A DNA stretch of 64,000 nt from Callorhinchus milii (taxonomy: Eukaryota), in the NCBI RefSeq assembly GCF_018977255.1, contig NW_024704742.1, positions 95,234,001 to 95,298,000 on the forward strand, given 5' to 3'. Below the pieces are notes generated by a model that searched no databases, had not been told where the DNA came from, and saw only the letters and a program-made list of their open reading frames with translations. Position numbers and translations under genes: made by a program. How positions within the stretch are numbered: the stretch's first letter is position 1; every line of letters begins with the position of its first letter. Positions 33,177 through 60,800 of the stretch are shown here, one piece after another.

Positions 33177-36100
33177 CAACAACAACAACAAAATTACAAT
33201 TACGCCTTTCATGTCGGGAGGACGTCCCAAAGCAGGGGCTCGAGCATGGGGGAGGGGTGGTCTAGGGGTGAGGGAAGGCAGAGAGGTGGGAGATCGACCA
33301 AAAAGGCACGATCGAAGAGAAGGGTCTTGAGACCGTCCTTGAAGGAGGCAAGGGAGGAAGCGAGGCGAAGGGACCGTGGTATGGAGTTCCAAAGTGTGGG
33401 GGCAGAGAGGCTGAAAGCCCGGCCACCGATGGTAGGGCAGGTTGGGTGGGAGACATGGAGCAGATCAGAGCCCGCTGAACGGAATGAGCAGGCAGGTTGG
33501 TAGGGAGTCAGCAAGTCAGAGGGGTAGGAGGGGGCAAGGCCATGGATGGCATTGAAAGTGAGGACGAGGATCTTGAACTCGATCCTCTGGGGGATGGGGA
33601 GCCAGTGGAGTCGGGTGAGGGTGGGAGTGAAGGGGTCACGGAGCCTGGTGCGTGAGAGTATGAGGATGATCAGCAGCTTGTGAAGGGAAAAGTTGGGAAG
33701 GCCGATGAGGGAGTTTCCGTAGTTGAGCCTTGATGTGATGAATGCGTGGGTGAGGGTTTTGGCAGCCTGAGGGGTGAGGCATTGGCGGAGTCTGGCAATG
33801 ATGCGGAGGTGGTGGTAGGCAGTGCCGGTCATGGCGCAGATGTGGGGGAGAAAGGACAGTTCAGGGTCAAACAAGACACCCAGGTTCCTGACTGGCTTAG
33901 TGAGGTTGAGTGTGCAGCCGTGGAGGCTGATGCTGCCAGTGCCCGAGGTACGGAGGCGCTGGCGTGAGCCAATCAGGAGGGCCTCGGTCTTGCTGATGTT
34001 GAGTTGGAGAAAGTTGTCCCTTGTCCAGGACTTGATGTCGGACAGGCAGTGGGTCAGGATGCCAATAGTCCTGGAGTTGAGGGTGGAGGCAGAGAGATAG
34101 AGTTGGGTGTCATCCGCATACATGTGGAAATTTACCCTATGTTTGTGGATGACGTCACCGAGGGGGAGCACGTAAAGTGTGAAAAGGAGGGGACCGAGGA
34201 CAGATCCCTGAGGAGCACGAGAAGGTGCGGGGGCTGGAGGAGAAGCCATTTGCTTCGACAAAGTGGAGGCGGTGTGAAAGGTAGGACCTTGAAGGTTGAG
34301 GTGGGAGGAGAAACAGTGGAGGGGGATTGAAAGGTCCACGGTGTTAAAAGGCAGCGGAGAGGTCGAGGAGGACAAGGAGGCAGAGGGAGCCCTGGTCGCA
34401 CATGGTCAGGATGTCGTTTGTGACCTTGACCAGAACAGTTTCTGTGCTGTGGGTGGCACGGAAACCCGATTGGAAGGTTTCATGGAGAGAGTGGGAGGAG
34501 AGGAAAGAGCGAAGCTGGGAGGCAACGGCTCTCTCAAGGACTTTGGATAGGAAAGGGAGGTTTGAGATGGGCCGGTAGCTGGATAGCTATGATGGGTCAA
34601 GGGAAGGTTTCTTCAAGGTGGGGGTGATAATGACCGTTTTGAGGGGGGGGAAGAAACAGTGCCAGATGACAGGGAGAGGTTGATGATGTCGGCGAGAAGC
34701 GGGGCAAGGAGTTTGAGCTGGGATTTAAGGATGGGGTTCAGGGAGCAGGTGGTGGGCTTCATTGAGGATATGGTGGTGAAGACAGAGGAGGGGTTGACAG
34801 GTTCAAAGGTGTGGAAGGAGGGATGGGTAATTTTCGGAGTGTGAGATGGGGGTAGGGAGGGGGTGGAAGTTGGGAGGGCAGTGGTAGCTGAGCGGATTCC
34901 CTCGATTTTGGGCTCGAGGAAATCCAGAATTTTCTTGCAGTGAGAGTCGGAGGAAAAATCTGGCAGGCGTGTCGGGGAGGGCGAAGGAGCCGGTTGGTTA
35001 TGGAGAACAGGAGCCTGGGGTTGCCTTTCGCCTCCAGGATTAACCTGGAATACAAGGATGATTTGGCCGAGGCGAGAGCGGAGCGGTACGTTTTGATGAG
35101 GTCCAGTCAGATGTGACGATGGACCGTTAGGCCGGATTTGAGCCAAGTGCGTTCGGGAGCCCGCACCTGGCCCTTAAGCGAGCAGAGGTGGCTGGTGAAC
35201 CACGCTGAGGATCGGGAATAGTTCAGGAGGTGAGGGGAGGCAAGGGCGTCGAGTGTGGTGGAGAGGGTGCTGTGGAGAAGAGTAAGCGCAGAGAGTTGGT
35301 TGGTGTGAGAGGTGGACCAGAAGGGGGGGAGTCAGAGGACTCCAGGGCAGCGGAGAGGGACTGCGGGGAGATCTTCTTTCATGGGCGATAGAAGATGGTG
35401 GTAGGTTTGAAGGCAGTGAGGAGAGGGATATGGGAGTTGAGGGAGATGAAATGGTAGTCAGAGATGACTTTGTCAGTGATGGTGACATCCAAGACGCTGA
35501 GGCCCCGGGTGATCACCAGGTCGAGAGGGTGACCGTGGTTGTGGGTAGCAGAGTGGATGTGGAGATAGAGGTTGAGAGAGGAGAATTCTGAGGAGGTGGA
35601 GCAGGAGGGGGTGAAGTGGAGGTTGAAGTCGCCTAGGATGATGAGACTGTCGGAGCAGAGGCAACGGGAAACGAGGATGGAGATGTCAGAGATGAAGGTG
35701 GGGGAGGATTTTGGGGGGCGGTAAACTAGGAGGATTTTTAGAGAGAGGTGGGAGGGATGGCAGAGGGTAAGGTGTTCAAAAGAGGGAAATGAGCCGGTGG
35801 AGTAGGGGGATAGGGCAAGTGACGCCCTGAATATAAGGGCTACCCTGCCGCCATGGCAGTTGGGGCGTGGGGCATGGTGTTAGGTATAGCCGGGTAGTGT
35901 GGCCTCAGTGAGGGGGGGAAGGTGTCACCTGGGGTGATCCAGGTTTCAGTGAGGGCCATAATGTCAATGTCCTCATCGAGGATGAGTTCATTGACGACCA
36001 GGGTCTTGTTGGCGATGGAGTGGACGTTTTAAAGGCCAATGCATAGTGGACAGTTGGCAGGGGGATGTGTGGGATGGGAGGGGGTACTGGATTGGTTGGC

Positions 36101-46019: not shown

Positions 46020-46392
46020 CAGCCCGACTCAGTTGGTAGCATGTGAACCTCTGAGGCAGAAGGTTGGGGTGGGGGTTCAAGTCCCATGAAGGGACACTGA
46101 ACTCCCATCTAGCATGACACTCCAATACAGTTTGTTGCATTGTCAGAGGTTCATCCTTTGAATGTGATGTTAAACACATATCACAATTGCCTGCCAGACT
46201 TTAAACATTGGCCTTGGCCTTGCCAACAATCTCCCAAATAAAATTGATCAGACTTCATGTGCACATTTTTGTGTGCAAATTGGCTGTTGTGTTCATCAAC
46301 AAATAGTCACAACACTCTACAGTAAATGCAGTTAATTGCTTTGAAACATTTTGATGATGTGGTAAGGTACTTATCAAATGCAAGGATTCTTA
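46020..46392 (+). mobile_element. Older Deu-domain-like SINE
   Basis: Similar to 39455-39870. Confidence 0.55.
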
Positions 46393-46765
46393 TAAAGTAC
46401 TCTGTATAGACTTTTTTTAAATTTGGATTTTAAATTTACATGACAATCAAGTTTAAATTTGATTCCTGTGTCCATTGTTAAAATATCAAATGTTACTATT
46501 TCGCACAAATTCCAATAAATTTCAGTACATGATTTTAAATTCTCAACATTCACGGTTGCATCTTTTGATGAAATTATTGTGTTCTGCACATTAATGTTCA
46601 GTTTGCTGGCGTAATCCATATTCCCATTGAATGAGAAAGTGTTTGAATGCCCTCAACCTTATATAAAGGATTGCATAAACATGAAACAACATCGTACAAA
46701 GGTATAAAATGAACAATTTTATTTACAAATATTTACAACACACCTTAATACTTCTAATGAGTGTC

Positions 46766-48045
46766 TTACATTTTACCCTTTCTTGTCCTCTTACTCTTGG
46801 TCATGCGTGTGCTCAATGGCCTCAATGTTGCAGGATGTTTTCTTTTACCTCTGTGTGACCCTACTCCTGCAGTGCTGAAACTCGCTAGTGTAGAAAAAAG
46901 TGGCTGTGTGGTGGTTGACAGCTCAGAATCAAAGTTGCCTGAAGCTTCAACAGAATCTGTGAGCTCTAAACCACTTGGTTGTATGTCCAAAAGCAGATCC
47001 CTGTGTGATTGTTGGCATTCTGTGGTTGTTAAATTAGGGGTTGAGGGATCGTTGGCAGGTGTGTTTGTATTGAAACTCCCTTCGGTTTGTGGGCCCAATG
47101 ACCCAAGGTTTCGGACAACCTCCTGGTACCTCTGCTCAGCTATCTGCTTGAGGATGGACTTCTGTGTTTCAGCTATCTGGAGGAAGCCAGCTGCCATCGA
47201 TCTATTCATCTGCTCGCTCAATGTGGCAAAGGCACTAGCTATGGCCTGGGAGATGCCAGTATTCATGGTTGCAGCTGCTAATGCAGTGGCACCATGTATA
47301 GCCTCCACCACAAGCTGTGTGTCCACACCAGCTGATTGTTGTTCTGCACAAGTCTCAGAGTTCATTCTTTGCTCGACATTCCTGCAGACACATCTCATCT
47401 CACGACGCAGAAGTCTTATTGCCTTCACAAGGTCCTGCCTTAACTGTCTTATGGTGTCTGGAAGCTGCTCTGCACATTGCTGCACAGGAGCCAGACCACT
47501 ACGTATAGTTGAACTCATGTCTGTCAGCAACTGAATGGTGTCATCTCCCTGCCTTAACATTTGCCTACGAAATAGGGGACCTATACCCCTCTCATCCACA
47601 GCCCTGCCAGACAGGGATCTTAGATGCACCCGGCTCATTTGTGGTTGTCTCATTGGTGGGCCTGTGTAGATTTGGGAGACTCCATCCTCCAAATCTTCAT
47701 CATCTGAGATTATCTTCACTTGTATCTCCTCACCTTCATCACCTTCCTCACATTTGACAGTAATTAATTGTGAAGCACTTTGAGTTGATTCATCCCGATA
47801 AGCCGATGTAAAAACACTGGCTTTTTCTTTCTGTCTGTCCAACTCCTGCCCCTCACTTGAGTGCTGTGCTACCAACATGTCTCCTACATTACCCAAAGTG
47901 CCAATAGCTGAGCTGGAATGTGCAAGTGATAATGCTGGTTGCGATATTTCACTTGGATCAGAGATTGATGAAGGGCTGTTTCCTTCTTCTAGGACATCAT
48001 CCCCTCCAGATATGACTCCGTGCTGGGGTGAAATGAATTGTAAGT
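46766..48045 (-). CDS. Myb/SANT-like gene terminal coding exon 3
   Basis: tttgtttaccag acceptor, phase 1, in frame with the 376-aa ORF; 1280 nt open; minus-strand AATAAA at 46718-46723. Confidence 0.8.
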
Positions 48046-48159
48046 CTGGTAAACAAATAAAGGGACCAAATCAGCACAAGGACCTTAAATCACACCTATT
48101 TTCCATTCTTAAAAATAAAAAAACTCCTAATCTGGGATTTAAATACTAAAAACTGGGAT

Positions 48160-50550
48160 TATGAATTTGGACAAACATGAGGTAATTGATTCAACATAGA
48201 TTTCTGAAAGTTAGGTAATGCTTAACACAGTATTTTTGAAATTAAGTGTGGTTTATGTGGATTTTGACATAGCATTTGACAAGAGACATATTGCAAAGAT
48301 TATGTCACATAATAGTAGGTATGAAGGCGAATATACCCACATGGATAGAGATGGTTGGAGGGCAGAAAGCAAAGTCTGCAAAAAGGAAAATTCTTGTTCA
48401 CAGGGAACATGTAGTCAATCGTGTTGCACAATGTTCTGCGCTGATTATTTACTATATATATAAATGATCTGGACTTAGGAATTGAAGTAACAATATTAAA
48501 ACTATGCTTCCCCCAAACTGGTGCTAATGATACAAATTGCGGGGAGGGGAGACATGGCAAATTATGCCAAAGTTTGTGGAAGACTGAATCTGCCATAGAA
48601 AAGCTAGAGAATGGACAAATAGGTGAAGCATTTTAATATATTTTAATGCACAATTGGCTGCTGCGTTTCGCCCACTTTACAGTATATTCTGTGAAGCACT
48701 ATGAGACATCTCGACGACGTGATAAGACCCTATATCAAATGCAAGGATTATTATTATTTTAGTACAAAGAGTAAGGAAAGTAAATATACCTTAAACAATA
48801 AGTTTTTTGAGTTAGAGATACAGCTACTTTGGTGTGTTGGTAAAAAGCTCATGAACAGTCACAGCACAGCTAGATAGATAAGGTCAAAAAATGGCAAAGA
48901 GAATATTTTTTATATCTAAAGGCATAAATGCAACATCAACTTGCATTTAAAAATTGCCCTTCACACAGGATAGCATCTCGGAGAGCTGCATCATGGTGGG
49001 TATCAATGCCAGAGGGGAGGGAACCATAGGGACAGTCAAAGAGGTAGGTCTTCAAAAGTAAGGAGGTAATATATAATAATCCTTGCATTTAATATAGTGC
49101 CTTATCACATCTTCAAGACGTCTCAAAGCGCTTCACAAAATATAGTGTAAAGACTCTATATTTTGTGGGCAAAACGTGACAGCCAATTGCGCACAGCAGT
49201 GTCCCAAGAACAGTCATGGTTTCAGTGACAATTTTTGTTTAAATGAATTATTACCCCCAGAAAAGTAATCCACCAATGGACTAATGATGGGTTTCTACTT
49301 ACTGCTAGGTAAACAGAGGCGTGTGGAGTAAGGAACCATGCCCAACATTTCGCCCTGCTGTGAGCCGAACCCAGATTTCTCACTTGCGAGGCGAGTGCTC
49401 TAACAACTGAGCTACACGACCCCACAATATTGAACTTGTTCGAGACCTTTGTTAAGCCAGCAATAGTTGGATGCTGTACAAGATGTGTACAGTTTTAAGC
49501 ATGCTTTATAGTAAAGATACAAAAGAAATAAAACATGCCCATCTGTATTCACTAGATTTTTGCTAGGAATGATGGTTTTCAGTTGTGAAGAGTGACTTTA
49601 AAGTCTTCATCCTTTAAAGTCAAGAAGGCTAACACCCTAACTGCATTTCAGAATATAGTACTGTTGATTTTTATTAGGCAATAAGAACATAAGAATTTGC
49701 TAGGCAAAAGACCCAGGTCCATCCAGTTCTCCTTCTACCATCCTGGCAGTCACACACACATCATGTCCGAAACTATATATTGTATCCCGAGATATTATTT
49801 CCTAACAGAAATCTATCTAATTTGTTCTTGAAAGAATCAACACTTTCTGTTTCCACTGTCTCGCGAGGGAGCCTGTTCCATATGTTTGCTACTTGCTCAC
49901 TAAAGTAGTATTTCCGCAGATTTATTCTGAATTTACCCCCTTCAATCGCAGGCCGTGTCCTCTGGTTCTACTGATCAGTACAAGATAATACAGCTTACCA
50001 CGCCCTACATTACCTGGGCCCTTCAGAATCTTATCGAGTCCCTTAAGAATCTTTGAGAGAGCATATATTTAAAAGAATTACAGAAAGAATTAAGAGGGAG
50101 TTTAGAAAAAATGCTTTACATGGAGGATGATTAGAATGAAATTCTCTCACAAATCACAGCTGAAGCAGAGTCCATAAATTATTTAAAGAGAATACTAAAA
50201 GTTCATTCTAAAGAAAACGTTATTCTATTTAGAGAATACTAAATTCTCTAAATTCTCAGCGCCTTGGGACGTCCTCCTGACGTGAAAGGCGCTTTATAAA
50301 TGGAATCTTGTTGTTGTTGTTGTTGTTGTACTTAAGGATATTAATAATCATTATTCTTAGATTTGGTTTAGCACTTTCCTTGTCAGGAGGATGTCCCATA
50401 GCGCTGTTGTGAAGAGGGAAAAGAGTAATAAGGGTTAAGTGGTGCAAGCAGGAAAGTCAGATTAGATGGGTCACATGAGGAAAAACAGCAATGCAGGCTT
50501 GATGGGCTGAATGGCAATTTTCTGTGCTATAAAATCTATGATTCTATAGA
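48160..50550 (+). mobile_element. Highly decayed CR1 LINE split by later insertions
   Basis: VYVDFDIAFDK RT remnant at ~48250; CR1-like 3' end gatgggctgaatgg..ttctgtgct at ~50500. Confidence 0.6.
49073..49423 (-). mobile_element. Full-length tRNA-derived SINE, longer variant
   Basis: Same head and tail with an extra internal segment. Confidence 0.85.
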
Positions 50551-50633
50551 TTATCATATTGCTCATCTTGTAAACTTTTAGCGATTAAAATTTAACCAAA
50601 AACAAATTATCTTTACTTACAGGTACTACATAC

Positions 50634-50784
50634 CTCGTCGTTCAAAGTCCAATCCAATATTCCCTTCTTCTACTCTCATCGTTGGCTCAGGCCCAAATAT
50701 CTCCAAAACCCTCTCCTCATGTAGTGAAAGTTCCTTCTGGGTCGATGGACCAGCACTGGTCGCATTGTTATACGGCACTTTATT
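50634..50784 (-). CDS. Myb/SANT-like gene coding exon 2
   Basis: ttgcag|..|gtatgt; NKVPYNNATSAGPSTQKELSLHEERVLEIFG, like the post-Myb LTxxEERVL segment of Harbinger-type Myb proteins; phase 0-1. Confidence 0.82.
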
Positions 50785-50984
50785 CTGCAAGACAAGTGTG
50801 TGATAGGAATTAAGACGCTCGTGTCGATGCTTTGGTTCTCTGTTCATTCAGTGCCACCTGAGACCTGTGCCATGGTGTGCCGCCTACCCTCACGCTCACC
50901 CATTACACGGCAGTCTTCAGTGTGTACCTCAGCCTCTCGCGTTCCTGCTCTGCACATTTCTGTGTGATTGCCCGAGAAACTCAC

Positions 50985-51212
50985 CCTTGCGCTCTTCTTC
51001 AGGTCATGGACCTTCTTCCTGCACTCCTCCCAGGTCCTCTGGGTTCTCTCCACGCCATTGACCAGCGTGACTACCTCCTGCCACGCCCTCAGCCTTGCCT
51101 GGGTCTGGGCAGGGAACCCTCCGGGGGAGAAGAGGATCTGCTGCCTGACCGTCACAGCATCTATGAGGACACTCAGCCCCTTCTCTGAAAACTTGGACTT
51201 GCGCTGCAACAT
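50985..51212 (-). CDS. Myb/SANT-like DNA-binding protein (Harbinger-type, NAIF1/MSANTD-like), coding exon 1
   Basis: MLQRKSKFSEKGLSVLIDAV...ILF...AWQEVVTLVNGV..RTWEECRKKVHDLKKSAR fits the Myb_DNA-bind_5 pattern; 228 nt, donor agg|gtgagt; acceptor T-run-aag 6 nt before the ATG. Confidence 0.85.
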
Positions 51213-51399
51213 CTCAACCTTAAAAAAAAAAGACCTTTCCCCGCAAAACCCTCAGCTGCCTTCCTCCCCCGTTACATATTTCCTCATCTGTTTGGAGCCC
51301 AAGCGGACCCTCCCTCCCTCCCTCCCCCCCCCTTCACATGCTCATTTGGCTCCTTAAGCAATCAAACAACAGCACCATTTTGCGTTTGACTGAATTGCA

Positions 51400-52560
51400 C
51401 TCTCAATGCATTTGAAGGCTCAGCCCCGGGCGGAGGATTTCAGTGCATGTTTTTGTGTCTTGACATTGCTGAGCTCCTCGGGCACATGGGGAGAGGGAGA
51501 GGGCAGAGAGAGAGCAGAGAGCGGGAGCAGCTCAGAGCAGACAGACAACAATGCAGAGCCCACCACCACCATCGTACGCGCTGCGCCTGCGCAGCGCTCA
51601 GCCCCGCCCCTCCCCGGATCCCGTCAGCGAGCATGCGCAGTAGCCACCACCCACCCGCCACACTCCTCGATGCTCTGACGCGTACATCGGCCCCCTCCCC
51701 CCACTCTCTCTCTCAGTGAGCATGCGCAGTGAGCTGGGAGCGGCCTCGCCCTCTCTTCGGTGCGCGTGCGCGGCCGCCGGCCTCTCTTCGGGTGCGCTTG
51801 CGCGGCGGGCGGGCGGGTGAGCGAGAGAGAGAGAGAGAGAGAGCGGCGTTGGCGAGAGGCAAAGTTTGGCTTCTAGCAACTTCCCTCCTAATCTACGTCA
51901 TCCCTTTATCCGCCGCCTGCGTTTTTACACCGAAAAAAAAACGGGCGACAGAGAGAGACAGAGACAGAGAGGGGCGGAGGCGGAGCGCGCGAGCGAAACC
52001 GTCGACGGTAAAAAAAAAAATCAGTGCCTTTATCAAACGCCGATAAAGACAACCGATCGTTTTTTTTTATTGAACGCCGAACCGAGCGGGAGGGGCGTGT
52101 AAATAACCGGCAAAAAGGGTGACCATTTTGTATTACAAACAGATCGCTCGTGGGTGGGCACCGGCGGCTGCGCGGATTACCCACACAGTGCGGCGGGGCG
52201 ATGAGGAAGCTCTGACCGACCGACCGACCGACCGAGTGACCGACTGACGAGTGACACGAGAGCGAGGAGGGACGGCCTGTGCGAGCGAGGCCGCCCCAGC
52301 CCAGGCCCCACTGCCAGCCCAGGGCAGCACACACCAGCACAGGCTCCGCCCCGCCCCGGCCCGGCCCGGCCCGGCAGCACCGAGAGCGGCCGAGTCGGTC
52401 GGTCAGCGACAGGGAGTGAGGGAGGGGAGTGACTGACTGACTGACTGACTGACTGGGAGCGGCGATGGCGGAGAGCGCGGCCACCAGAACCATCCGGGTC
52501 ACCGTCAAGACGCCGAAGGACAAAGAGGAGTTCGAGCTCGGACCCGAGAGTAACATCAGG
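51400..52560. promoter_or_regulatory. CpG island / bidirectional promoter between the Myb/SANT gene and UBQLN1
   Basis: CpG dense; GC boxes; NRF1-like GCATGCGCA at ~51631 and ~51720; divergent ATGs at 51212 and 52465. Confidence 0.75.
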
Positions 52561-52563
52561 GAG
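52465..52563 (+). CDS. UBQLN1: Ubiquilin-1 first coding exon (start of UBL domain)
   Basis: gcgATGG; MAESAATRTIRVTVKTPKDKEEFELGPESNIRE|gtcagt; VTVKTPK-KEEF ubiquilin motif; paralogue assigned by KIF27-GKAP1 synteny. Confidence 0.88.
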
Positions 52564-53735
52564 GTCAGTGTGTGCCCTCAGGGCCGGAGAGTAACATCAG
52601 GGAGGTCAGTGTGTGCCCTCAGGGCCGGAGAGTAACATCAGGGAGGTCAGTGTGTGCCCTCAGGGCCGAGAGTAACATCAGGGAGGTCAGTGTGTGCCCT
52701 CAGGACACAGAGAGTAACATCAGGGAGGTCAGTGTGTGCCCTCAGGGCCGGAGAGTAACATCAGGGAGGTCAGTGTGTGCCCTCAGGGCCGGAGAGTAAC
52801 ATCAGGGAGGTCAGTGTGTGCCCTCGGACACAGAGAGTAACATCAGGGAGGTCAGTGTGTGCCCTCAGGGCCGGAGAGTAACATCAGGGAGGTCAGTGTG
52901 TGCCCTCAGGGCCGGAGAGTAACATCAGGGAGGTCAGTGTGTGCCCTCAGGGCCAGAGAGTAACATCAGGGAGGTCAGTGTGTGCCCTCAGGGACACAGA
53001 GAGTAACATCAGGGAGGTCAGTGTGTGCCCTCAGGGCCGGAGAGTAACATCAGGGAGGTCAGTGTGTGCCCTCAGGGCCGGAGAGTAACATCAGGGAGGT
53101 CAGTGTGTGCCCTCAGGGCCGGAGAGTAACATCAGGGAGGTCAATGTGTGCCCTCGGACACAGAGAGTAACATCAGGGAGGTCAGTGTGTGCCCTCAGGG
53201 ACACAGAGAGTAACATCAGGGAGGTCAGTGTGTGCCCTCGGAGCCCGAGAGTAACATCAGGGAGGTCAGTGTGTGCCCTCGGACACAGAGAGTAACATCA
53301 GGGAGGTCAGTGTGTGCCCTCAGGGACACAGAGAGTAACATCAGGGAGGTCAGTGTGTGCCCTCAGGGCCGGAGAGTAACATCAGGGAGGTCAGTGTGTG
53401 CCCTCAGGGACACAGAGAGTAACATCAGGGAGATCAGTGTGTGCCCTCAGGGACACAGAGAGTAACATCAGGGAGGTCAGTGTGTGCCCTCAGGGCCGGA
53501 GAGTAACATCAGGGAGGTCAGTGTGTGCCCTCAGGGACACAGAGAGAGAGTAACACCAGGGAGGTCAGTGTGTGCCCTCAGGGCCGGAGAGTAACATCAG
53601 GGAGGTCAGTGTGTGCCCTCAGGGACACAGAGTAACATCAGGGAGGTCAGTGTGTGCCCTCAGGGACACAGAGAGTAACATCAGGGAGGTCAGTGTGTGC
53701 CCTCAGGGACACAGAGAGTAACATGAGGGAGGTGA
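52546..53735 (+). repeat. ~41-bp minisatellite containing UBQLN1 exon-1 end and splice donor
   Basis: gagagtaacatcagggag|gtcagtgtgtgccctcagggccg, about 28-29 copies. Confidence 0.95.
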
Positions 53736-56710: not shown

Positions 56711-57874
56711 GGAACATAGGAACAGGAGTGGGTCATTCAGCCCCTCAAGCCTGTTTTGTCATTCTGTAAGATTGTGGGTTATCTTTACCTCAACCCCACT
56801 TCCCTCCCCGGGCCCCCATATCCCTTGGTGCCCTTACCTAACGAATATCCACCTCAGTCTTGGAAATTTGAATGGAGCGAGAGAGAGTAACATCAGGGAG
56901 GTGTGTGCAGAGCGAGTAATATAATAATAAATAATGCTTGCATTTGATATAGTGCCTTATCGAGTCTTCGAGACGTCCCAAAGCGCTTCACAGAATACAC
57001 TGAAGTGAATTGACTGTATATCTTATATTGGACAGAGACAGACATGAATCAGGTAGGCCGACACAGAGAGAATCTCACGCGCACACAGAGACGGGCAGAG
57101 AGAGAGTAAGAGTGACATCAGAGACGTGAGAGCAGAGGGAGAGTAACATCAGAGTGGTCAGTCTAGAGAGAGAGGGATATTAGTGAGGTGAATGTGGAGA
57201 GGGGAACATCAGAGAGGTGAGTGCAGAAAGGGAGAGAGAGACGAACGGAGAGAGAAACACACGCGCGCTGACAGAGAAAGGCACACACACATACAGACAA
57301 AGAGACACAGACAGACAGGAAGAGACACACACACGCTGACAGAGACAGACTAGAGAGAGACGAACACGCAGAGTGAGACACACAGACATTCGGAAGAGAG
57401 AGACAGACACGCGCAGACGGACAGAGAGAGAGGAGTCAGCCAGAAAGCGGGAGTGAGGGACGGGAGAGGGATCGGAAGGAGGAGAGGGAGTAGAGAAATG
57501 AGAGAATTAAAGAGTGTGTAGGCGAGAGTGAGGGGGAGGCCTGCACAGGGAGCACGTGAGGGGGAGGTGGACACAGAGAGGGAGAGAAGTAGGGAGAAGA
57601 GAAGAGCAGTAGGGGACACAGATAGAGAGGGGGGAGACGACAGACAGACATGCATCGGTCAGCCGACAGAGAAACGCGCGCACACACAGCGACAGGCAGA
57701 CAGACGTGCACTCAGATATGGAGTCAGGCAGGGAGACAATATAATTAGGCAGTCGGGGGTGGGGCGGACATGCGACATGTAGGCAAATGCACACACAGAC
57801 ACACACACACCCTAAGACAGAGAAACACAGGCGCACAGTGAAAGAGAGAAAAGGCCTGAGCCAGAAACAAAAAG

Positions 57875-60800
57875 AGACAGCCAGAGAGAGCCTCACACAC
57901 ACCCACAGCCAGAGAGAAACTAATACACACACAACCAAAGAGACCGTCTCACGCACGTACACACACATAACCAGAGAGACCTCACACACGTACAGCCAGA
58001 GAGAGTCTCGCACATATACAGCCAGAGAGAGTCTCGCACATACACAGCCAGAGAGAGCCTCACACACATACAGCCAGAGAGTCTTGCACATATACAGCCA
58101 GAGAGAGTCTCGCACATATACAGCCAGAGAGAGTCTCGCACATATACAGCCAGAGAGAGTCTCGCACATACACAGCCAGAGAGAGTCTCGCACATACACA
58201 GCCAGAGAGAGTCTCGCACATACACAGCCAGAGAGAGTCTCGCACATACACAGCCAGAGAGAGCCTCGCACATACACAGCCAGAGAGAGTCTCGCACATA
58301 CACAGCCAGAGGGAGTCTCGCACATACACAGCCAGAGAGAGCCTCGCACATACACAGCCAGAGAGAGTCTCGCACATACACAGCCAGAGAGAGCCTCGCA
58401 CATACACAGCCAGAGAGAGCCTCACACACACAGCCAGAGAGAGCCTCACACACACAGCCAGGGAGAGCCTCACAGACACAGCCAGGGAGAGCCTCACACA
58501 CACAGCCAGGGAGAGCCTCACACACATACACAGCCGTGGAGAGCCTCGCACATACACAGCCAGGGAGAGCCTCACACACATACACAGCCAGGGAGAGCCT
58601 CACACACACAGCTAGGGAGAGCCTCACACACACACACAGCCAGAGAGAGCCCTCACACACATACACAGCCAGAGAGAGCCCTCACACACACAGCCAGAGA
58701 GAGCCCTCACACACACACACAGCCAGAGAGAGCCCTCACACACACAGCCAGGAGAGCCCTCACACACACACACAGCCAGGGAGAGCCGCGCACATACACA
58801 GCCAGGGAGAGCCCTCACACACATACACAGCCAGAGAGAGCCCTCACACACACAGCCAGAGAGAGCCCTCACACACACACACAGCCAGAGAGAGCCCTCA
58901 CACACACAGCCAGGGAGAGCCCTCACACACACACACAGCCAGGGAGAGCCGCGCACATACACAGCCAGGGAGAGCCTCACACACATACACAGCCATGGAG
59001 AGCCTCACACACATACACAGCCATGGAGAGCCTCACACACACACAGCCAGGGAGAGCCTCACACACACAGCCAGAGAGAGCCTCACACACACACAGCCAG
59101 AGAGAGCCTCACAAATACACAGCCAGAGAGAGCCTCACACACACACAGCCAGAGAGAGCCGCGCACACACAGCCAGTGAGAGCCTCTCACACACACACAG
59201 CCAGTGAGAGCCTCACACACACACACACAGCCAGAGAGAGCCCTCACACGCACAGCCAGAGAGAGCCCTCACACACACACACAGCCAGGGAGAGCCTCAC
59301 ACACATACACAGCTATGGAGAGCCTCACACATACACAGCCAGAGAGAGCCTCGCACATACACAGCCAGAGAGAGCCTCGTACATACACAGCCAGAGAGAG
59401 CCTCACACACAGCCAGAGAGAGCCGCGCACATACACAGCCAGAGAGAGCCTCGCACATACACAGCCAGTGAGAGCCGCGCACACACACACACAGCCAGAG
59501 AGAGCCTCACACACAGCCAGAGAGAGCCTCGCACATACACAGCCAGAGAGAGCCTCGCACATACACAGCCAGAGAGAGCCGCGCACATACACAGCCAGAG
59601 AGAGCCTCGCACATACACAGCCAGTGAGAGCCGCGCACACACACACACAGCCAGAGAGAGCCTCACACACAGCCAGGGAGAGCCGCGCACACACAGCCAG
59701 GGAGAGCCTCACACACAGCCAGGGAGAGCCTCACACACAGCCAGGGAGAGCCGCGCACACACAGCCAGGGAGAGCCTCTCACACACAGCCAGAGAGAGCC
59801 CTCACACACAGCCAGGGAGAGCTGCGCACACACAGCCAGGGAGAGCCGCGCACACACAGCCAGAGAGAGCCTCACACACACAGCCATGGAGAGCCTCTCA
59901 CACACACACAGCCAGTGAGAGCCTCTCACACACACACACACACAGCCAGGGAGAGCCTCACACACACACACAGCCAGGGAGAGCCTCACACACAGCCAGT
60001 GAGAGCCTCTCACACACACACACAGCCAGTGAGAGCCTCTCACACACACACACAGCCAGAGAGAGCCCTCACACACACACAGCCAGTGACACGCACACAC
60101 AGCCAGAGAGGCTCACTCACACACACATAGCCAGAGAGAGGCTCACTCACACACACACAGCCAGAGAGAGGCTCACTCACACACACATAGCCAGAGAGAG
60201 GCTCACTCACACACACACAGCCAGAGAGAGGCTCACTCACACACACACAGCCAGAGAGAGCCCTCACACGCACAGCCAGAGAGAGCCCTCACACACACAC
60301 ACAGCCATGGAGAGCCTCGCACATACACAGCCAGAGAGAGCCCTCACACACAGCCAGAGAGAGCCTCACACACACAGCCAGAGAGAGCCTCACACACACA
60401 GCCAGGGAGAGCCTCACACACATACACAGCCAGAGAGAGCCCTCACACACACAGCCAGGGAGAGCCTCACACACATACACAGCCAGGGAGAGCCTCGCAC
60501 ATACACAGCCAGGGAGAGCCTCACACACATACACAGCCATGGAGAGCCTCACACATACACAGCCAGAGAGAGCCGCGCACACACAGCCAGTGAGAGCCTC
60601 ACACACACACACACAGCCAGAGAGAGCCCTCACACGCACAGCCAGAGAGAGCCTCGCACATACACAGCCAGAGAGAGCCGCGCACATACACAGCCAGAGA
60701 GAGCCTCGCACATACACAGCCAGTGAGAGCCGCGCACACACACACAGCCAGAGAGAGCCTCACACACAGCCAGGGAGAGCCTCACACACATACACAGCCA

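Follow-up and report, generated by a model that had tools for sequence, protein, structure and literature searches.

What is the intact, spliced gene that lies between a GKAP1-like and a ubiquilin-like gene of the elephant shark, Callorhinchus milii? The locus is part of a stretch of 64,000 nucleotides (nt) (hereafter, the window), which corresponds to C1:95,234,001-95,298,000 of the 991.5-Mb Callorhinchus milii genome; positions given without a prefix are window positions. An earlier reading of the letters of this stretch (the sequence-only reading) had proposed a domesticated Harbinger-type Myb gene here. Our analysis indicates, with a probability of roughly 0.7, that this gene (the window gene) is a real elephant-shark host gene, which descended from the Myb-like second open reading frame (ORF) of a PIF/Harbinger transposon and is now immobile. 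The earlier proposal stood insofar as the gene is intact, spliced, transcribed, single copy, and immobile and encodes a Myb domain. It did not stand as the description of a new and solitary gene, because the gene is already annotated and has both paralogues and a relative in sharks and rays.

The ORF listing contained three pieces of the frame, all on the minus strand and at the positions at which the sequence-only reading had placed them. When the pieces were joined by a splicing script, from the ATG at 51212 that was found both by reading the sequence and by the script, they gave a coding sequence of 1659 nt, which encodes 552 amino acids (aa) followed by a single terminal stop, with introns of phases 0 and 1. 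The three-exon, minus-strand gene with GT-AG introns, matching phases, and a 552-aa ORF that had been claimed was thereby confirmed. The AATAAA that had been placed about 45 nt after the stop was present slightly closer to it (Table 1). Intron 2 proved as laden with repeats as had been described, its word depth ranging from ~140 to 71,000 compared with 12-57 in exon 3, which indicates very high-copy repeats. An inverted pair of 80-nt repeats (48675-48754 / 49073-49152) is also found inside this intron.

RNA evidence was taken from the contigs of four public sequencing runs belonging to three studies, which were aligned to 45.5-53.5 kb of the window. The public records of these runs are not labelled as RNA, and we treated them as RNA because their contigs skip introns. 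The junction 50784/50985 was present in contigs of all four runs and the junction 48045/50634 in those of three, so that both junctions predicted by the sequence-only reading were recovered in the contigs across the three studies. Read on the plus strand, the skipped stretches end in CT..AC at both junctions; these ends correspond to GT..AG on the minus strand. Runs X3 and X4 each supplied one contig, of 1717 and 1770 nt, respectively, in which all three exons were joined without intron sequence; the transcript leader extends to 51255 in the former and to at least 51299 in the latter.

The spliced translation was identical, letter for letter, to RefSeq XP_007905016.2 (P0008; LOC103187365; 552 aa), which NCBI names "nuclear apoptosis-inducing factor 1", or NAIF1, by automatic naming. 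The unannotated status implied by the sequence-only reading was therefore wrong, as RefSeq already holds this exact 552-aa model. A protein-collection search with exon 3 gave one match out of 7601 candidates, an older 441-aa C. milii model clustered with XP_007905016.2, and the search with exon 1 in longer-protein mode gave no match among 51 candidates. The RefSeq label NAIF1 at the window locus is unverified, which is relevant to genome annotation. No published description of the window gene, or of its family in the elephant shark, was found in the papers searched.

Table 1 Features of the window gene and of its upstream region (window positions; a slash marks an exon-intron boundary).
Feature	Position	Strand	Description
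Coding exon 1	50985..51212	-	228 nt, 76 codons; encodes Myb_DNA-bind_5 trihelix domain; donor AGG/GTGAGT
Intron 1	50785..50984	-	200 nt, phase 0, GT-AG; skipped in RNA contigs, 4/4 runs
Coding exon 2	50634..50784	-	151 nt; acceptor ttgcag/, donor GAG/GTATGT; short conserved helix (predicted), residues 97-106
Intron 2	48046..50633	-	2588 nt, phase 1, GT-AG; high-copy repeats; skipped in RNA contigs, 3/4 runs
Coding exon 3	46766..48045	-	1280 nt including stop; acceptor accag/; disordered linker, C-terminal helices (predicted), basic tail
Stop codon TAA	46768-46766	-	read from the sequence
AATAAA polyadenylation signal	46718..46723	-	42 nt 3' of stop; RNA contigs end before the signal
C-terminal core, coding part	47102..47578	-	two long helices (predicted), residues 283-356 and 369-441; no named domain
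Basic C-terminal tail, coding part	46769..46855	-	last 29 residues, K/R-rich; putative nuclear localisation signal
CpG island	51300..52464	.	between the Myb gene and the divergent ubiquilin gene; putative shared bidirectional promoter

In a hidden Markov model scan, Pfam PF13873 (Myb_DNA-bind_5) matched residues 4-76 over profile positions 1-73 of 78 (E 8e-13; 48.6 bits against a cut-off of 21.7), which agrees with the N-terminal Myb/SANT-like domain that the sequence-only reading had assigned to this family. A genome search with Myb_DNA-bind_5 recovered exon 1 as well (48.4 bits). Exons 2 and 3 matched no Pfam family, and exon 3 matched no PDB chain by sequence. In an AlphaFold2 model made from a 10-row alignment, residues 10-83 form a confident three-helix domain (helices 10-27, 34-55, and 61-83) with a predicted local distance difference test score (pLDDT) of ~90. 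The short helix at residues 97-106 (pLDDT ~80) is aligned with the paralogues and elasmobranch proteins described below, residues 112-278 are predicted to be disordered, and the basic tail is likewise predicted to be disordered. F28 and W44 were invariant across the 7 aligned shark loci. The top Foldseek rows were weak (E 0.4-2, best 0.44; template modelling score [TM] by target 0.54-0.68) and consisted of the DNA-binding Myb/trihelix domains of Sap1, NgTRF, Zeste, and GT-1. Atlas look-alikes of residues 1-130 were Myb_DNA-bind_5 clusters named MSANTD4, NAIF1-like, and PRDM11, and the Atlas search of residues 275-460 returned nothing beyond unspecific rows of long helices, with a best feature score of 0.81. 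Within the linker-coding part of exon 3, 47749-47836 has eight short dispersed genomic DNA matches (35-86 nt, 76-94% identity), and part of the disordered linker may be derived from a small repeat.

Searching the genome at the DNA level with exon 3 returned exon 3 itself and 8 short matches of 35-86 nt. The protein search with exon 1 gave 9 matches out of 30 candidates, the best of which other than itself had 64, 61, and 54% identity, and that with exon 3 gave 4 matches out of 8 candidates, namely itself and three paralogues (51, 35, and 29% identity). Myb_DNA-bind_5 loci numbered 15 in 991 Mb at E<=0.01. The DDE_Tnp_4 transposase family had 11 matches among 45 candidates genome-wide; none of the 11 was inside the window, and the nearest was 1.5 Mb away. 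Among the 23 inverted pairs found in 43-55 kb, no convincing terminal inverted repeats (TIRs) surround the gene, the single pair that straddles it being 16 nt long and 88% complementary. The window gene is thus an immobile single copy that has neither TIRs nor an adjoining transposase, and the DDE_Tnp_4 ORF, TIRs, and near-identical copies of an active PIF/Harbinger transposon were not found there. The sequence-only reading had noticed no transposase ORF or TIRs nearby, with which our genome and window searches agree, and the many near-identical copies with TIRs that might have shown up in a copy-number count did not appear. A published survey reports Harbinger elements as undetected in the elephant shark (PMC9179366).

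The sequence-only reading had implied a lone gene. The genome contains three more intact paralogues, whose introns are at identical positions. Paralogue A (C1:135,808,080-135,798,854, minus strand; 502 aa) and paralogue B (C1:135,778,333-135,787,049, plus strand; 506 aa) are intact three-exon ORFs with GT-AG introns that lie tail to tail near the chromosome end, with 11.8 kb between them (loci L043-L046). Paralogue C, at 91.16 Mb of C2, is annotated as 'uncharacterized LOC103184966' (P0005, 414 aa). The four genes agree in their introns: intron 1 (phase 0) follows one and the same codon where the Myb domain ends, and intron 2 (phase 1) is inserted at a shared position of the alignment. This agreement argues for duplication of an ancestor that was already intron-bearing. 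The C-terminal core was conserved among the paralogues in the alignment. The basic tail is kept in paralogues A and B, and these two and the window protein end within the same alignment columns. In the full-length tree, the four elephant-shark genes occupied one side (100/100), in the order paralogue C, then the window gene, then A and B (99/98). Paralogues A and B have a GC content of 73%, and their GC content at third codon positions (GC3) is 0.88-0.90 versus 0.47 for the window gene. They were not returned from a library of 1.84 billion proteins though they were included in the search profile; therefore, they appear to be unannotated.

The relatives outside the elephant shark were obtained with a profile of seven shark Myb segments, which was used against the protein collection with 8000 candidates scored. 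Seven proteins were found: P0005 (paralogue C) and six elasmobranch proteins, whose named sources are Carcharodon, Heptranchias, Chiloscyllium, Narcine, and Pristis, with 51-54% identity to exon 1. Searches of large protein collections returned chondrichthyan proteins only. The elasmobranch proteins bear the automatic labels 'uncharacterized', 'NAIF1' (Carcharodon, P0009), and 'MYPOP-like' (Pristis, P0014). Those available at full length (P0010, P0012, and P0013 of Heptranchias, Chiloscyllium, and Narcine, respectively; 423-440 aa) match the whole layout of the window protein in the alignment. Over ~425 residues, the proteins of the cow shark, carpet shark, and electric ray showed mutual identities of 92% and 84%, a conservation far above that among the four elephant-shark paralogues, and the elasmobranch genes formed the opposite side of the full-length tree with very short branches. 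Homology of the C-terminal part of the window protein with the elasmobranch profile was supported by hhalign (probability 80%, E 1.4e-5, 44 columns). When the genome was searched with the elasmobranch protein, the best match was exon 1 of the window gene (48%), and no closer elephant-shark copy was present. Therefore, the elasmobranch gene must either be co-orthologous to the four paralogues together or represent a fifth lineage, which was lost in the chimaera. With a C-terminal profile of the four paralogues, an exhaustive HMMER search of 1.84 billion proteins gave 2 matches, both from Callorhinchus, and missed the elasmobranch relatives found later; its outcome is therefore no proof that the C-terminal domain is absent elsewhere. 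The sequence-only reading had considered a gene confined to one lineage possible, and this suggestion gives way to a family with a conserved relative in sharks and rays.

Selection was estimated by NG86 from paralogue pairs only, as the ratio of nonsynonymous to synonymous substitution rates (dN/dS). Between the window gene and paralogue A, dN/dS was 0.32 for the Myb domain and 0.23 for both exon 2 and the C-terminal core; between the window gene and paralogue B, it was 0.25 for the Myb domain. The pair A versus B gave 0.39 in the Myb domain, 0.28 in exon 2, 0.81 in the linker, and 0.59 overall. Taken roughly, these values show that the domains were constrained at some time in the history of the family, not that the window copy is under selection at present.

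The genome also holds decayed relatives of the family. The elasmobranch protein gave 11 rows against the genome, in which 10 dispersed loci matched its middle or C-terminal part, and 9 of the 11 rows had stops. Several of the dispersed Myb-domain matches of the genome searches bear 1-5 stops. At 16.68 Mb of C1, a compact decayed copy has a Myb part and a C-terminal part ~1 kb apart. Dispersed, mostly stop-bearing relatives were seen at C7:22880881, C6:10203336-10203887, C7:19930770, C3:51484661, C2:10744110, and C1:16676719, among others. These dispersed decayed copies may represent ancient remains of the source transposon. In a tree of Myb domains only, the family, the elasmobranch gene, and six relics were grouped (92/87, not starred), apart from the three loci that scored highest on the Myb_DNA-bind_5 model (C4:64.63 Mb, C2:95.97 Mb, and C326). 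The second of these (L026; C2:95972748-95972984, minus strand) is an intact ORF with 72 bits on Myb_DNA-bind_5, which may resemble MSANTD3 more than the other family members. MSANTD3 is reported to be absent from cartilaginous fishes in a survey of such genes (PMC9392472). Two intact DDE_Tnp_4 ORFs were found genome-wide, at C19:2537621-2538097 (plus strand; 405 aa from the first ATG) and C21:6291976-6292467 (minus strand; 371 aa) (L021 and L022, respectively), and these are candidate partners of the Myb-like proteins. The ORF on C19 presumably resembles HARBI1. A complex prediction of the whole window protein with this HARBI1-like ORF scored 0.07 against a mark of 0.34; having been run without controls, it counts neither way.

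For a host gene of Harbinger origin, the following mode of action can be proposed. The N-terminal trihelix Myb_DNA-bind_5 domain (residues 4-83) would bind DNA, the two long C-terminal helices would contact either the protein itself or a partner, and the basic tail would carry the protein into the nucleus. A short conserved helix would lie between the Myb domain and a linker of ~165 presumably disordered residues. Transcription would start from a CpG island common with the head-to-head ubiquilin gene, and the family would have expanded by duplication of an intron-bearing gene. The protein would most likely serve in the nucleus as a DNA-binding adaptor or as a regulator of transcription, of a kind with NAIF1, MYPOP, or MSANTD. 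DNA binding, protein contact, and nuclear entry are expected because of the analogy with the Harbinger Myb-like protein and NAIF1. The former binds the transposon ends and the transposase and imports the transposase into the nucleus, and NAIF1 acts likewise with HARBI1 (PMC9392472).

The same source lists NAIF1 and MSANTD1-4 as genes that stem from Harbinger Myb-like ORFs, with MYPOP (tentatively), TSNARE1, PRDM11, and ZSCAN20 as further candidates; it describes MSANTD1-4 as vertebrate genes that arose by repeated domestication of such ORFs and a related Myb type as common to MSANTD3, MSANTD4, and NAIF1 (PMC9392472). Like MSANTD1-4, the window gene would represent the same kind of event with the same class of domain, and has three coding exons, and it may likewise be under purifying selection, for which it offers rough paralogue values. 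It is distinct from them in that the top Pfam-scoring loci fall outside its group in the Myb tree (92/87, not starred). As in the Myb-like ORF of an active PIF/Harbinger element, a trihelix DNA-binding domain is followed by a helical part, and the decayed genomic relatives point to such a source; in contrast to the active element, the window gene has no adjoining DDE transposase, TIRs, or near-identical copies. That the window gene adds a member to the known class of domesticated Harbinger Myb-like genes is largely supported. PMC9392472 contains no description of the window family, and 'elephant shark' and 'Callorhinchus' each occur 0 times in it.

Several points weigh against a domesticated Harbinger gene. 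No transposase match was present in the 3-kb loci of the decayed copies looked at, and the evidence for the putative kinship with a complete Harbinger element's Myb-like ORF consists of the Pfam family, the Atlas look-alikes, and the decayed copies. The tree of Myb domains alone resolves the branching poorly (1 of 15 inner branches starred), and Foldseek gave 0 matches against the PDB at E<=0.001. The C-terminal helices at 283-356 and 369-441 are predicted with moderate confidence (pLDDT 60-89), and the mean of the whole model is 56.6. The dN/dS values are rough because dS is saturated in most comparisons that involve the window gene and because GC3 differs strongly (0.47 vs 0.88-0.90); fixation of the window copy and selection on it are putative. 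Furthermore, in each of the four runs, the contigs that cover exon 3 end at 46775-46782, ~10 nt short of the stop codon, with low depth beyond, so that the 3' end of the mRNA is putative. At 46776/46775, a GT follows AGG, and the contigs may end here through use of an alternative donor, through early polyadenylation, or as an effect of assembly. An alternative donor at this position as the main coding form was set aside, and the stop at 46766-46768 was kept, since the ORFs of paralogues A and B share their final alignment column with the window ORF.

Among the alternatives, it is highly improbable that the gene is a transposon copy which lost its mobility recently or has kept it, or an unselected transcribed relic, with a frame that is open only through its youth. 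Decayed relatives are indeed scattered in the genome, and A and B, compared with each other, reach a dN/dS of 0.81 in the linker and 0.59 over their whole length; against this, the gene is a single copy whose nearest copy has 64% identity in the Myb domain and 51% in exon 3, and TIRs and a transposase were not found. Its two spliced introns are at positions common to paralogues with saturated dS, and the gene is therefore old. In addition, the frame of 552 codons was kept open while intron 2 gained repeats, and the gene has a putative promoter in a CpG island, its expression being seen in runs that belong to three studies. An elephant-shark orthologue of NAIF1, that is, a named gene of jawed vertebrates at a new position, appears improbable, albeit less starkly so. 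This identity is suggested by the NCBI names of XP_007905016.2 and of Carcharodon P0009, by the chordate NAIF1 clusters among the Atlas structure rows (TM 0.74-0.78, residues 1-130), and by the report of NAIF1 in cartilaginous fishes in PMC9392472. However, the name is automatic, there are four paralogues instead of one, and the C-terminal profile matched two proteins, both of Callorhinchus, in 1.84 billion representatives. The locus lies between GKAP1 and ubiquilin, and COQ4, which in human lies near NAIF1, is on another chromosome, at C8:17.89 Mb. The NAIF1 neighbourhood was thus not found at the window locus, by a weak test with this one marker. The window protein is like NAIF1 in its N-terminal Myb_DNA-bind_5 domain, its helical C-terminal part, its single-copy, intron-bearing, and expressed gene, and its RefSeq name. 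It is unlike NAIF1 in its length of 552 aa, its long disordered linker, and a C-terminal core for which no relatives were found outside chondrichthyans; the gene differs in its position between GKAP1 and ubiquilin and its four paralogues, and partnering with a HARBI1-like protein is only putative. Both would be expected to work alike, through binding to DNA and to a partner and through entry into the nucleus, to judge by what PMC9392472 reports of NAIF1.

Membership of the MYPOP family, as a paralogue or co-orthologue within an old vertebrate family and not through a chondrichthyan-specific domestication, is unlikely, though it deserves more weight than the two preceding explanations. It is compatible with a Harbinger origin because MYPOP itself is a suspected Harbinger derivative. 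The layout of the window protein is presumably common with human MYPOP, in which a Myb_DNA-bind_5 domain at the N terminus is followed by a short conserved helix, by a long middle part of low complexity, and, at the C terminus, by a basic tail. In layout, MYPOP presumably resembles the window protein at least as much as NAIF1 does, and the Pristis relative (P0014) is auto-named 'MYPOP-like'. On the other hand, no MYPOP-named cluster was among the Atlas rows listed. Symplekin and IRF2BP, which mark the human MYPOP neighbourhood, were located on the unplaced contig C394 and at two loci on C3 and C9, respectively, and not near the loci of the window family; none of the synteny markers used for the MYPOP or NAIF1 locus was near any of the four paralogues. 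PMC9392472 places MYPOP among further putative Harbinger-derived genes, and according to two reports (PMC6265261, PMC13187161), it acts in the nucleus as a repressor that binds DNA and as a restriction factor of papillomaviruses.

The reading as a host gene derived from a Harbinger Myb-like ORF can be extended further, although we put this extension forward only tentatively and hold it to be less probable than its opposite. The four elephant-shark genes and the shark/ray gene would be a chondrichthyan family with its own domestication of a Harbinger Myb-like ORF, apart from NAIF1, MYPOP, and MSANTD1-4. The module of two helices at the C terminus would constitute a new type of domain for protein contacts, the window copy would have been captured beside the CpG-island promoter of ubiquilin, and the lineage would later have lost its Harbinger elements. 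Vertebrates gained NAIF1 and MSANTD1-4, and probably MYPOP, TSNARE1, and others, by domestication of Harbinger Myb-like ORFs, and the published survey started from human genes, so that members present only in chondrichthyans were outside its scope. If the separate origin is true, a further domestication event took place at the base of, or within, the cartilaginous fishes, and a conserved, uncharacterised C-terminal module is available for study. The family comprises four intact chimaera genes, two of which the protein-collection searches did not return, and a shark/ray gene (84-92% identity, shark vs electric ray). The understanding of how such genes arise is unchanged by this finding.

With regard to the neighbourhood, plus-strand peptides at ~24.2, 30.4, and 37.1 kb were recognised by peptide motifs as presumable parts of GKAP1, and a plus-strand first coding exon from 52465 was recognised in the same way as the presumable start of the ubiquitin-like (UBL) domain of ubiquilin. 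With the neighbours named by these peptides, the order is GKAP1 (plus), the Myb gene (minus), and ubiquilin (plus), which makes GKAP1 the tail-to-tail and ubiquilin the head-to-head neighbour of the Myb gene. RNA contigs at the 3' end of the GKAP1-like gene reach 46246-46426, and those of the ubiquilin-like neighbour begin at 51855-52338. Over 51300-52600, the CpG observed/expected ratio is 0.92 and the GC content is 62%, versus 0.37 and 41% in the gene body, and the promoter would be shared by the two divergent genes. A Pfam scan for neighbours found no relevant family in the 57 ORFs of 51.3-64 kb, and among the 150 ORFs of 32.8-46.7 kb, it matched three, all from a relic of a long interspersed nuclear element (LINE). 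This decayed LINE lies in the GKAP1-like gene at 33212-35879 on the minus strand, with a reverse transcriptase in two ORFs and an endonuclease in one. The end of the first coding exon of ubiquilin and its donor constitute the first unit of a ~41-nt tandem array (52552-52700 on), in which the peptide and the GT are repeated at 52552, 52593, 52634, and 52674. The ~10 kb after the array, up to ~62000, shows extreme strand skews and spurious ORFs of up to 993 codons (57745-60723).

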